Shown here piece after piece: positions 4,577-4,898 of a DNA stretch of 5,804 nt (its first letter is position 1; each line of letters starts with the position of its first letter). The stretch comes from a virus (taxonomy: Duplodnaviria; Heunggongvirae; Uroviricota; Caudoviricetes), in the IMG/VR virus record IMGVR_UViG_2698536355_000005. The stretch is one strand, 5' to 3'. The notes under the pieces are model-generated. The model had not been told where the DNA came from. It worked only from the letters and a program-made list of their open reading frames with translations, and made no database searches. The translations under genes and the position numbers were made by a program.

Positions 4577-4687
4577 ATGGTGATGATGGATTTCACCAGC
4601 AGGATAATGTTGGTACTGACTGATGGCGCTCTGGTCTGCGGCATTGTGGTATTGCTGTGGCCGATGATGAAAGAACAGAATGAATAA
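4577..4687 (+). CDS. Hypothetical small hydrophobic peptide (36 aa), single predicted TM helix
   Basis: ATG 4577 to TAA 4685-4687: MVMMDFTSRIMLVLTDGALVCGIVVLLWPMMKEQNE. No clear SD. Possible -10 TATAAA at 4535-4540. Below the track size cutoff; speculative. Confidence 0.2.
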   Translation: MVMMDFTSRIMLVLTDGALVCGIVVLLWPMMKEQNE

Positions 4688-4690
4688 TTC

Positions 4691-4720
4691 TTGACTTTTT
4701 TGTTTACTGTTTATTAAAAA
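4691..4720 (+). promoter_or_regulatory. Second PR'-like -35 region (possible relic or alternate late promoter)
   Basis: TAATTCTTGACTTTTTTG (4686-4703) resembles TAATATTGACTTTTTGA at 3487-3503 within this same window. TTGACT at 4691-4696 is followed by A/T-rich -10 candidates (TAAAAA at 4715-4720 with an 18-bp spacer). Lies ~200 nt upstream of the terminator at 4874-4898, like the lambda PR'-to-tR' (6S RNA) spacing. Confidence 0.3.
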
Positions 4721-4822
4721 ACCAACCGCATGGTGAATCCTCCTTGGAGGGGCTAAATGATCGAGTTTTAAGGGCACGTAGCGAGTTCTGTTTGATCATT
4801 GCAGAACTTAGCGGGAGGCGCC

Positions 4823-4867
4823 ATGCGTACATCACTAGTGTTATTCCTTTTATCATTTTCCTTGTGA
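4823..4867 (+). CDS. Mini-ORF (14 codons), possible leader peptide
   Basis: SD GGGAGG (4813-4818), 4-nt spacer, ATG 4823; translation MRTSLVLFLLSFSL; stop TGA 4865-4867 lies 6 nt upstream of the terminator stem. Could be chance. Confidence 0.25.
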   Translation: MRTSLVLFLLSFSL

Positions 4868-4873
4868 GTTCTG

Positions 4874-4898
4874 GCTGCGCATTGCGCAGCTTTTTTTT
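4874..4898 (+). terminator. Rho-independent (intrinsic) terminator, plus-strand
   Basis: GCTGCGC (4874-4880), loop ATT, GCGCAGC (4884-4890): perfect 7-bp GC-rich stem followed by T8 (4891-4898). The reverse-complement side has no U-tract, so it is unidirectional. Confidence 0.85.

Follow-up and report, generated by a model that had tools for sequence, protein, structure and literature searches.

Positions 4691–4898 very probably carry pasD, a diverged prophage small RNA gene of the STnc100 family

The segment 4691–4898 of the window, by which we mean the whole 5,804-nt stretch of DNA that was analysed, is very probably the pasD gene in its PasD2 variant; pasD belongs to the STnc100 prophage small RNA family, in which it is a divergent branch. 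PasD is a previously known, Hfq-associated small regulatory RNA of lambda-like prophages in pathogenic E. coli. The segment is a real transcription unit that has already been described, and its reading as a second late promoter, put forward in the initial annotation, is not supported. The unit and its surroundings contain the following features.

3491–3530, plus strand: lambda-type PR' (a comparator outside the unit), TTGACT-N17-GAAACT followed by AATAATGGG; aligns with lambda Q-PR'
4529–4687, plus strand: 52-aa DUF3927/TciB-like ORF (Pfam DUF3927, E = 3.4e-14), with its stop 4 nt before the -35
4691–4696, plus strand: putative -35 hexamer TTGACT of the pasD promoter, as read from the sequence
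4715–4720, plus strand: putative -10 hexamer TAAAAA, within the family block TT(T)[G/A]TTAAAA, conserved over 66 upstream sequences
4728–4898, plus strand: pasD small RNA (PasD2 variant), 171 nt, 171/172 identity to PasD2
4863–4868, plus strand: putative seed UGUGAG within CCUUGUGAG (4860–4868), complementary to the target motif
4873–4898, plus strand: intrinsic terminator and Hfq-type 3' module, a stem-loop plus U8, preceded by a U-rich tail (4840–4862)

Identity of the unit

Positions 4728–4898 (+) were compared with PasD2 (NC_011601 741157–741328); 171 of the 172 nucleotides are identical, and the sole difference is one C that is absent from the 3' arm of the terminator. PasD2 is a 172-nt sRNA of EPEC E2348/69, detected by Hfq RIL-seq and confirmed by Northern blot; the PasD coordinates, the 172–173 nt length, the Northern probe, the Hfq RIL-seq rank and a remark on EcOnc13 are all given in table S6 of the same work (PMC8550237). 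The reported 5' end of PasD2, which is based on RNA-seq coverage and Northern size rather than on a primary-transcript (TEX/TAP) assay, maps onto G4728; its 3' end is the T-run at 4891–4898. The initial annotation had predicted a self-contained promoter-to-terminator unit with an RNA starting near 4725 and ending at 4898. The near-identical EPEC RNA bears this out: the length is about 171 nt, the predicted start lies at most 3 nt from the EPEC-reported 5' end, and the predicted 3' end is that of PasD2.

PasD1 differs from the window copy at a few positions; phage 434 is 99.1% identical to it over 561 nt, and the region treated by Zhu, Shabalina & Storz (2026 preprint) has 97.3% identity. The genomic position is that of PasD as well: in the interval from Q to the lysis genes, the unit follows the DUF3927 ORF and precedes the SASA esterase/holin. 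Both PasD1 and PasD2 have the promoter region, the UGUGAG seed and the terminator in common with the window copy, the seed being located in the tail just 5' of the terminator in all of them. Their upstream neighbours (a 744-bp membrane ORF and DUF3927) and the downstream SASA esterase also match the window. The Q genes are different: the window module and PasD1 (in PP4) lie behind lambda-type Q, whereas PasD2 (in PP2) lies behind an 82-type Q. The DUF3927 ORF is annotated as TciB in phage 434, and the literature search on tciB returned nothing relevant.

Among 5426 complete E. coli genomes, 678 (∼12%) carry pasD, with 908 copies in total, all of them chromosomal. The copies in O157:H7 genomes are 96.5% identical. 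EcOnc13 is an Hfq-CRAC candidate of EHEC Sakai, from the work of Tree et al. in 2014. It has been named as the EHEC homologue of PasD1 and PasD2 (PMC8550237), and the equivalence assumed here rests on that remark.

Recognising this stretch as pasD gives it a firm identity, which matters as annotations here often go wrong. In RefSeq, a 'hypothetical protein' or a pseudogene is called, and on the opposite strand; the phage 434 record has a CDS that passes straight through the PasD terminator, and Rfam-based pipelines miss PasD because its score falls below the STnc100 cut-off. RIL-seq ties PasD to type III secretion and bfp/per virulence transcripts; together with the presence of PasD in about 12% of complete E. 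coli genomes, this makes correct annotation important for studies of pathogen regulation. To the known RNA we make two small additions, a defined candidate promoter and a covariation-supported pseudoknot in the STnc100/PasD 5' domain.

Promoter, terminator and putative seed

From the sequence, we propose that a sigma-70 promoter, composed of TTGACT and TAAAAA, starts the RNA at about G4728 and that the intrinsic terminator ends it at 4891–4898. The 171-nt product would begin with a structured 99-nt 5' domain (4728–4826) that helix P1 closes; inside it are hairpin P2 and an H-type pseudoknot, formed between the P3 hairpin loop and the strand that directly follows P2. Next would come a single-stranded, U-rich tail that includes the seed UGUGAG, and the RNA would end in the terminator hairpin plus U8 tail, a typical Hfq-binding 3' module.

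The spacer between TTGACT and TAAAAA is 18 nt in length and the RNA 5' end lies 8 nt 3' of the -10. TTGACT is kept in PasD1, PasD2, phage 434 and phage 2B8; in Evi-type relatives it is TTGATT. The -10 block reads TGnTAAAA family-wide. Over 66 distinct upstream sequences, T-13, A-11, A-9 and A-8 are conserved at 92–95% and A-10 at 86%. TG at -15/-14 (extended -10) is present in most STnc100-type copies; different from these, PasD has a correctly spaced -35 instead. A simple consensus scan called no promoter here; that scan needs T at position 6, which is absent in TAAAAA. We also considered a sigma-54 promoter, prompted by RpoN ChIP at Salmonella STnc100, and rejected it by eye, as the GG/GC spacing misfits -24/-12.

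The RNA might instead be mainly the processed 3' end of a longer PR'/moron transcript that covers the 252-aa membrane ORF, DUF3927 and PasD. PasD2 was drawn as 3'-UTR-like by Pearl Mizrahi et al. (PMC8550237), and the EPEC 5' end was taken from coverage and Northern size. The 82-type tR' remnant of the window is decayed, with two stem mismatches and T5 only, and the PasD terminator is the first strong one after PR'. However, the -10 block is conserved, as is its distance from the 5' end, across 66 upstream contexts, which include the stx2B stop, DUF3927 stops and upstream terminators, even where the unit directly follows a terminator; this conservation argues for an own promoter. So does abundance: PasD2 lies behind an intact 82-type tR' and PasD1 behind a decayed one, yet the two EPEC copies are similarly abundant (base means 11017 and 8652, respectively; PMC8550237). 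In Salmonella, an RpoD ChIP-exo signal is found at STnc100 promoters (PMC10794520). We thus consider processing as the main source to be unlikely, and a promoter belonging to the pasD unit itself to be the better account of these data. Primary and processed PasD origins could coexist.

The terminator stem (4873–4891) contains 8 pairs, 6 of which are G-C, and a 3-nt loop, and is followed by the T-run to 4898. Compared to PasD2, it is one base short and has 7 Watson-Crick pairs plus one G-U. The strong terminator seen in the initial annotation is this one, and it is the only terminator-like site within 3300–5100. During lytic growth, Q-modified polymerase from PR' (3491) would get to nanS and the lysis genes only by reading through the PasD terminator, which for PR' transcripts in the lysogen is the first strong one.

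The RIL-seq targets of PasD1 and PasD2 carry CUCACA(GG/AG), complementary to UGUGAG (PMC8550237 fig. S5, table S7), with weak MEME support for the motif (E = 2.4e3 and 6.5; PMC8550237 fig. S5). With one mismatch, CCTTGTGAGTTCTGGCTGCGCATG, to which the Northern probe is complementary, matches 4860–4883, and the same is true for PasD2. In EPEC E2348/69, the RNA of the near-identical gene is abundant in uninduced lysogens and Hfq-associated, and in RIL-seq it was ligated to CUCACA mRNAs such as cesF, tir, bfpB, perB, uspA and aceE (PMC8550237). Fold changes of pasD1 and pasD2 in the DESeq2 table are small and non-significant (PMC8550237); if that table compares an hfq mutant with the wild type, as we assume, the Hfq dependence of PasD stability is modest. 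By analogy with EPEC, the window copy may behave alike, and a regulatory outcome on such targets would be expected.

Structure of the 5' domain and relation to STnc100

The 5' domain is predicted to contain the following elements.

4728–4735, plus strand: P1 5' strand GCAUGGUG, pairing with 4819–4826 and closing the 5' domain in the minimum-free-energy fold
4740–4752, plus strand: P2 hairpin, CUCCU / UGG loop / AGGGG, containing the CCUCC...GGAGG noted in the initial annotation
4756–4762, plus strand: pseudoknot 5' strand AAUGAUC, pairing with 4794–4800 and containing the mini-ORF ATG
4783–4809, plus strand: P3 hairpin, GAGUUCUG (4783–4790) with CAGAACUU (4802–4809)
4794–4800, plus strand: pseudoknot 3' strand GAUCAUU, in the P3 loop
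4819–4826, plus strand: P1 3' strand CGCCAUGC, pairing with 4728–4735

A full-length match to Rfam STnc100 (RF02076) spans 4698–4902 with a score of 41.3 bits (E = 1.4e-6), which is lower than the 47-bit gathering threshold; PasD1 and PasD2 score 37.7 and 41.4 bits, respectively. Two bona fide STnc100 copies in the same position score 144.7 and 119.9 bits, and their promoter and first 30 nt are common to the window. Like PasD, STnc100 occupies the slot from the moron site to nanS/holin in many lambdoid prophages. The two RNAs share the -10 block, the 5' end GCAUGGUGAAUCC, P1, P2, the pseudoknot and P3. The window has the conserved -10 block TTAAAA 7–8 nt 5' of GCAUGG that marks STnc100, and all four helices of the STnc100 5' domain (P1, P2, P3 and the loop pseudoknot) can form in it and fit the family alignment. 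Different from STnc100, the central region, both pseudoknot strand sequences, the tail and the seed are all replaced in PasD. The STnc100 P4 hairpin (CCGGG-AGGCA-CCCGG, before the P1 3' strand) is deleted, so that AGCGGGAGG abuts CGCCAUGC. We class PasD as a diverged branch of STnc100.

EcOnc27/sRNA103, located downstream of stx2B, is counted within STnc100 (RF02076). The PasD terminator and nanS leader are also found behind STnc100-type bodies in phage Evi and other contigs, and they are present in phage JLK-2012. In many prophages, the anti-sRNAs AgvB/AsxR are convergent partners of STnc100 (the 'sRNA dyad'), encoded on the opposite strand right after it; one example of this slot is at 4208–4269 of locus L005. 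Rfam identified no AgvB/AsxR-type convergent partner in the window, where the hairpin is not followed by a U-run on the minus strand, and no tRNA genes were found in the window. A scan of 596 Gb of contigs with GCATGGTGAATCCNCCT gave chance matches in unrelated phyla only, as its 16 specified bases are too few.

P1 is 100% paired in 41 distinct family members, with G-U changes only and no covariation; its 5' strand formed part of the family search pattern. The Rfam alignment puts the P1 3' strand at CACUAGUG instead, where the pairing is poorer. For P2, 93.7% of cells are paired in the family; its sequence is conserved, without covariation. The initial annotation had paired CCUCC (4739–4743) with GGAGG (4746–4750); the two are complementary, but in that register the loop would have only 2 nt, which is impossible. 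A hairpin can form either with 4 bp around a CUUG loop or in the family register, CUCCU (4740–4744) with AGGGG (4748–4752) and a 3-nt loop. In the minimum-free-energy fold, CCUCCU pairs with GGGAGG (4813–4818) rather than in P2.

The pseudoknot and P3 do covary. In the pseudoknot, both partners vary in each of the six pairs tested, and pairing holds in 95.5% of cells; 29 of the 32 distinct combinations pair fully, compared to 6.1% for swapped and 2.8% for shuffled partners under the same offset choice. In P3, both-sided change is seen in seven of the eight pairs and 97.9% of cells are paired. Overall, 97.5% of cells are paired versus 87.2% in shuffles, none of 500 reaching the observed value, and slid partners give 35–45%. 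These values come from an anchor-based, N-padded alignment from which the variable insert was removed; the 5'-strand offset was picked among 5 positions, and the resulting bias was measured. A plain MAFFT alignment of the 5' domains was discarded, as it shifted the pseudoknot strands by one column between classes and left-aligned the PasD P1 3' strand; a longest-complementarity matrix with G-U allowed separated the classes poorly and was not used.

Covariation thus supports an H-type pseudoknot in the conserved 5' domain, a modest new result from comparative sequence analysis; the literature searched has no mention of the pseudoknot or of the promoter architecture. Two relatives have nested hairpins in its place. 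Antiterminator pairing between P2 and the terminator is possible in STnc100 copies with a GCCCCUCUCCGGAGGGGC terminator; it was ruled out as a family feature, the PasD terminator being unrelated to the GCCCCUCUCCGGAGGGGC type.

Alternative readings of the unit

In the initial annotation, the unit was read as a further late promoter, responsive to Q, that has a 6S-like leader and a tR' and stems from another lambdoid late region; its RNA would then be a by-product like lambda 6S or StxS. We regard this as very unlikely. The unit is similar in size to lambda PR'-tR' (about 170–200 nt), its expression in lysogens is constitutive, as for PR', and TTGACTTTTT is common to it and the PR' of the window. 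This sequence occurs exactly twice on the plus strand, at 3491–3500 and 4691–4700, against an expectation of 0.02, and none of 200 shuffles had two or more copies. The repeat is real, but it comprises no more than the -35 hexamer and a T-run. Within the AT-rich region of 1.8 kb, there are 14 families of direct repeats of 10 nt or longer, one of them an unrelated exact 11-mer, and relatives of the unit drop the TTGACTTTTT context, some having TTGATTTTTT and others something quite different. Because such repeats are abundant and relatives do not keep the context, the repeat is not evidence of homology. CATGGT at +2 to +7, the place of the sigma-dependent pause element in lambda, forms a minimal -10-like hexamer with A in its second and T in its sixth position, and is no worse than lambda AACGAT; however, it lies within helix P1, and its invariance was imposed by the search pattern and would be accounted for by that helix anyway. 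The lambda-type Q gene is at 2825–3448 (Pfam Antiterm, E = 4.3e-57), upstream of a genuine lambda-type PR' at 3491 that is apart from the unit, and the unit itself lies 1283 nt from Q. Alignment to lambda Q-PR' extends to ∼3545, and the lambda-type Q/PR' segment is joined at ∼3545–3565 to 82/434-type sequence; the mosaic late region proposed earlier therefore stands, whereas the native late-promoter unit proposed with it does not. A missing relation to phage late-promoter/terminator units had been named beforehand as one outcome that would refute the proposal, and the proposal fails on that count: the unit aligns with neither the lambda nor the 82/434 PR'/tR' regions. The lambda Q-binding sequence TTGAATAA is also absent from the spacer. 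Copies of the unit are found behind at least four Q types (lambda-, 82-, PPyecE- and Evi-type) at distances of 433 to more than 4000 nt; 433 nt is the smallest Q-unit distance in 120 contigs, and another PR'-tR' lies within that gap. Two cases were examined, phage 434 and the locus L087 with its minimal arrangement; in both, Q has a separate PR'-tR' of its own beside it, upstream of the unit. Given this variety of Q families and the Q-adjacent PR'-tR' in the cases examined, the late-promoter reading is not supported. Like lambda PR'-tR' (6S RNA) and its Stx-phage counterpart StxS, PasD is a short, constitutive, terminated late-region transcript that Q-modified polymerase reads through; different from them, it is not beside Q, has no homology to the PR' examined and has no recognisable Q-binding element.

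The STnc100/PasD 5' domain (P1, P2, pseudoknot and usually P4) might itself be a functional module, beyond a scaffold for a base-pairing sRNA. A protein or ligand might bind to it, or it could have a role in cis, as a gate or insulator that separates the moron site from the nanS/lysis genes; seeds, tails and terminators would be exchangeable output cassettes. Conservation is indeed highest in the 5' domain and promoter, and tails, seeds and terminators are exchanged in the manner of cassettes; covariation is seen in the pseudoknot and P3, and in most loci the unit has a fixed place directly upstream of nanS/holin. A review finds the reason for the STnc100 arrangement unclear (PMC7873438). We nevertheless consider this improbable. 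PasD, without P4 and with its central part replaced, is still an abundant Hfq-bound RNA, and in two relatives nested hairpins replace the pseudoknot. No ligand or protein partner is known and no conserved alternative pairing of the 5' domain with the terminator was found; the structured domain may merely protect the RNA from decay. Even less probable, and the least so of all readings considered, is a small protein gene, with either an ORF of 52–62 aa from TTG 4744 or the 4-codon mini-ORF MIEF as the functional product. The mini-ORF is present as the initial annotation described it (ATG 4757–4759, stop 4769–4771), with GGAGG 6 nt before the ATG. The occlusion of this Shine-Dalgarno sequence that was proposed with it does not hold, as GGAGG is a helix arm and the ATG, which is absent from most family members, exists only where the covarying pseudoknot strand reads AAUGA. 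The family 'ORFs' that start from AAUGA strands are unrelated in sequence and length, and conservation is lacking for the mini-ORF as well as for the 52-aa ORF. In the phage 434 record, the ORF from TTG 4744 is listed as CPT_434_70, 'putative membrane protein'; however, this ORF has no Pfam match and passes through the terminator. Some EDL933 STnc100 copies have ribosome footprints, but over the 11 copies the ribosome coverage varies between 0 and 3.2 and follows no consistent trend (PMC5331693). A 1-nt indel between PasD1 and PasD2 frame-shifts the C-terminal half of the ORF, and 1-nt indels alter its length (52, 62 or 64 aa), while the DNA remains at least 96% identical; since the reading frame shifts and the nucleotides stay conserved, the unit is best taken as non-coding.

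Genomic setting and identity of the element

The window spans the nin-to-late region of an E. coli lambdoid prophage, and many E. coli chromosomes match its bases 105-5804 with 97-98% identity. The genes assigned with Pfam are as follows:

839-1405, HNH_3/AP2 ORF
1380-1982, NinG
1979-2185, NinH
2163-2828, Ser/Thr phosphatase
2825-3448, lambda-type Q (Antiterm, E = 4.3e-57)
3685-4443, 252-residue membrane ORF (no Pfam family)
4529-4687, DUF3927 ORF
from 4985, nanS-p (DUF1737 and SASA esterase)

Every chromosomal match to the window begins at base 105; bases 1-104 resemble one end of an IS1 element, with the inverted repeat GGTGATGCTGCCAACTTACTGATTTAGTG on the minus strand. 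About eight copies of the hexamer TTTCTA lie in a run at 594-640, just 5' of the HNH_3/AP2 ORF.

The element between DUF3927 and nanS (4691-4898, plus strand, promoter to terminator) is the known sRNA gene pasD of the STnc100 family. The observation made in the initial annotation is confirmed. In a permissive Rfam search, STnc100 (RF02076) was the one meaningful match, covering 4698-4902 (plus strand) at full length with 41.3 bits and E = 1.4e-6, below the 47-bit gathering score; a common ancestor of PasD and STnc100 is described in a preprint (Zhu, Shabalina and Storz 2026). Two copies are listed for EPEC E2348/69: PasD2 (NC_011601, 741157-741328, 172 nt) and PasD1 (1060260-1060432, 173 nt) (table S6, Pearl Mizrahi et al. 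2021, PMC8550237). Both were validated there by Northern blot with probe CATGCGCAGCCAGAACTCACAAGG and belong, in Hfq RIL-seq, to the sRNAs with the most connections, and the EHEC homologue is EcOnc13 (PMC8550237). Our alignment with both EPEC loci showed that window 4728-4898 is identical to PasD2, save that the window copy lacks one C in the 3' terminator arm. The complement of the Northern probe falls at 4860-4883 and the proposed seed UGUGAG at 4863-4868. Identity over window 4440-5000 is 99.1% with phage 434 and 97.3% with phage 2B8, and PasD copies of at least 95% identity were found in 678 of the 5426 complete E. coli genomes, all of them chromosomal.

All sequence features listed in the initial annotation were found, and its interpretation is partly right. 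The transcription unit of ∼171 nt is real, with both ends predicted correctly, and the strong terminator, consisting of an 8-pair stem (4873-4891) and a T-run to 4898, is the sole terminator-like site within 3300-5100. The central claim was wrong, since the unit is neither a PR'-like late unit nor the carrier of a mini-ORF with an occluded Shine-Dalgarno sequence. Directly after the terminator, the nanS leader contains an imperfect inverted repeat (4901-4926, ATGACC-TGCCA-C-TGGCA-GAT-GGTCAT), which is kept in all five aligned PasD loci.

Probable start signals of pasD and the late-promoter reading

We compared 66 distinct upstream sequences of 120 nt each. Conservation starts only ∼65 nt 5' of the RNA and peaks at TT(T)[G/A]TTAAAA, located at -17 to -8; within the -10 block, conservation is 92-95% at T-13, A-11, A-9 and A-8 and 86% at A-10. 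Most STnc100 copies carry TGTTAAAA, which is an extended -10 correctly spaced from the 5' end. The PasD/Evi branch has TATTAAAA and gained TTGAC/T at 18-nt spacing, a pattern followed by the window:

4691-4696, plus strand, predicted -35 element TTGACT
4715-4720, plus strand, predicted -10 element TAAAAA
G4728, plus strand, 5' end of the RNA

Among the varied upstream contexts are intrinsic terminators and the stop codons of stx2B and of DUF3927 ORFs, which indicates that the pasD/STnc100 unit has start signals of its own. An intact 82-type tR' precedes PasD2, and a decayed copy precedes PasD1; their similar read counts despite this difference argue for an independent promoter, and processing of upstream transcripts possibly contributes to PasD RNA. 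Between -65 and -20, STnc100-type upstream regions also contain a conserved AAATG(T/C)CTCACAATTCAG-N4-TTGAC-N-GTTGTCTG block, 5' of the extended -10 and absent from the PasD branch. With 24-25 nt between it and the -10, its TTGAC is too distant for a -35.

The initial annotation had proposed a second PR'-like late promoter, based on a repeat of the PR' -35 context and on a strong terminator ∼200 nt further 3'. Repeat TTGACTTTTT does occur in exactly two copies (3491-3500 and 4691-4700). Taken alone it counts for little as evidence: 14 direct-repeat families with units of 10 nt or more, one an unrelated exact 11-mer, lie within the same 1.8 kb, and the -35 context of the repeat is not preserved among relatives of the unit. 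One point does speak for a late promoter: CATGGT (+2 to +7) shows the A2/T6 signature typical of -10-like pause elements; however, it forms helix P1 of the RNA, and its invariance was imposed by the search pattern. A genuine lambda-type PR' is already present in the window at 3491-3530. Scanning viral contigs for GCATGGTGAATCCNCCT gave 120 loci, in which homologues of Q, TciA/B, nanS and holin were placed by tblastn. The unit follows lambda-, 82-, PPyecE- and Evi-type Q genes at distances of 433 to >4000 nt, and in none of the 120 loci does it adjoin the tblastn-located Q. Four unrelated Q families upstream are not what one would expect of a promoter that requires its cognate Q-binding element. 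At L087, the most compact locus, the 433-nt gap between Q and the STnc100 unit holds a separate promoter (TTTACG-N16-TATCAT) with a short leader, followed by a tR' and one more terminator; in phage 434, an 82-type PR' and tR' directly follow Q. Taken together, the window's own PR', the varied type and distance of Q and the separate PR'-tR' argue against a late promoter.

The proposed mosaic late region held up. Lambda homology runs from where Q ends up to ∼3545, past which the sequence is of 82/434 type. The joint lies at 3545-3592, and the same lambda/82-434 joint occurs in EPEC prophage PP4. The 82-type tR' of phage 434 is AACCCGCUGCCGAGUGGGUU followed by U8. The remnant in the window (∼3565-3592) is AACCUGCCGCCGAGUAGUUU followed by U5, with a shortened T-run and two stem mismatches, and transcripts from PR' probably extend into the 252-residue membrane ORF and the DUF3927 gene.

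Structure of the 5' domain and coding potential

Fifty distinct 5' domains were found, and their architecture is as follows, with window coordinates on the plus strand:

4728-4735 with 4819-4826, P1 (GCAUGGUG/CACCAUGC), closing the domain
4740-4744 with 4748-4752, P2 (family CCCCU/AGGGG)
after P2, variable insert
4783-4790 with 4802-4809, P3 hairpin
4756-4762 with 4794-4800, pseudoknot (AAUGAUC/GAUCAUU in PasD)
deleted in the window, P4 (family CCGGG-AGGCA-CCCGG)

The P3 loop is complementary to the 6-7 nt directly 3' of P2, forming an H-type pseudoknot. The pairing classes are AUCAGC/GCUGAU, UAUCAGUAC/GUACUGAUA, CUGGUG/CACCGG, UGGUGU/ACACCG, AAUGAC/GUCAUU and, in PasD, AAUGAUC/GAUCAUU. In the anchor-based alignment of 41 distinct domains used for the covariation test, 97.5% of cells pair, compared to 87.2% in shuffles (of which 0 of 500 came as high) and 35-45% when partners were slid. 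Both sides changed at 6/6 pairs of the pseudoknot and 7/8 pairs of P3; in P1, P2 and P4 the sequence is conserved and the only changes are G-U. When the 5'-strand offset was picked among five positions, with the identical choice applied to the controls, 29 of 32 distinct combinations were fully paired, versus 6.1% with swapped and 2.8% with shuffled partners. One relative each, at loci L021 and L010, has nested hairpins in place of the pseudoknot. The nested minimum-free-energy fold of the window (-55.6 kcal/mol, z = -2.3) gives P1 and the pseudoknot helix, which makes P3 impossible. Neither 'pseudoknot' nor 'promoter' appears in the preprint of Zhu et al., and no earlier description of an STnc100/PasD pseudoknot was found in the literature searched; the present analysis adds in a small way to the known pasD, by defining a promoter and a pseudoknot with covariation support.

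The 5' arm of P3, GAGUUCUG (4783-4790), recurs at 4866-4873, across the seed's end and the first terminator base, a duplication specific to PasD. Because of it, the 3' arm CAGAACUU (4802-4809) could pair with the seed region instead.

The CCUCC/GGAGG complementarity and the four-codon mini-ORF (MIEF, ATG 4757) are present. The supposed Shine-Dalgarno GGAGG forms the 3' arm of P2, and the ATG lies within a pseudoknot strand. An ATG at this position is missing in most relatives, and in those with the AAUGA strand the 'ORFs' are unrelated, of 2 to 30 or more codons. A 52-residue ORF from TTG 4744, labelled membrane protein in the phage 434 record, continues through the terminator and has no match in Pfam. 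Through single-base indels it is 52, 62 or 64 residues long, and its frame is shifted between PasD1 and PasD2 while the DNA is conserved. Ribosome coverage of 11 STnc100 copies in EDL933 is inconsistent (PMC5331693). At loci L001 (5305-5493), L003 (4198-4439) and L004 (4301-4699), protein gene calls in public records overlap pasD: a plus-strand 'putative membrane protein' in phage 434, and minus-strand hypothetical or pseudogene calls of RefSeq in E2348/69. Such calls are probably annotation artefacts.

Probable function and the STnc100 family

The best-supported role of the pasD product is that of an Hfq-associated, trans-acting base-pairing sRNA. EPEC PasD is abundant without induction, was sized by Northern blot and recovered with Hfq, and forms chimeras with CUCACA-motif mRNAs, its candidate targets (PMC8550237); the motif statistics of that paper are weak. 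The window copy would act likewise, with transcription starting at the TTGACT/TAAAAA promoter defined here and a presumed regulatory effect on targets. In cis, the terminator at 4873-4898 is the first strong stop past the window's PR', the 82-type tR' remnant being decayed; Q-modified polymerase must get past it before transcribing nanS and the lysis genes.

Phages PPyecE_EH1910 and Evi have true STnc100 copies, with scores of 144.7 and 119.9 bits, respectively. These occupy the slot of PasD, preceded by a TciA/TerB gene plus a small DUF3927-like ORF and followed by nanS or the holin, and they share with the window the promoter region and approximately the first 30 nt of the RNA. An STnc100-type RNA 75 nt 3' of stx2B has been named EcOnc27 and sRNA103, and strain EDL933 has 11 STnc100-type copies (PMC5331693). 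In at least eight Sakai prophages, such an RNA is half of a convergent Hfq-binding sRNA 'dyad' lying between late promoter and lysis genes, for a reason called unclear (PMC7873438).

Tandem STnc100-type units in the same orientation occur in contigs L010, L013, L022, L023, L031, L037, L044, L071, L076, L086, L088, L121 and L123, spaced 232-483 nt apart in most and 2108 nt in L037; these pairs are diverged tandem copies, differing in pseudoknot class and tail. The STnc100 family appears to evolve by swapping 3' cassettes. Among the viral loci, an identical 5' domain (e.g. the d0 type) occurs with no fewer than five distinct 3' tails and terminators; one of these uses the PasD terminator, and some are followed by a convergent AgvB/AsxR-like gene.
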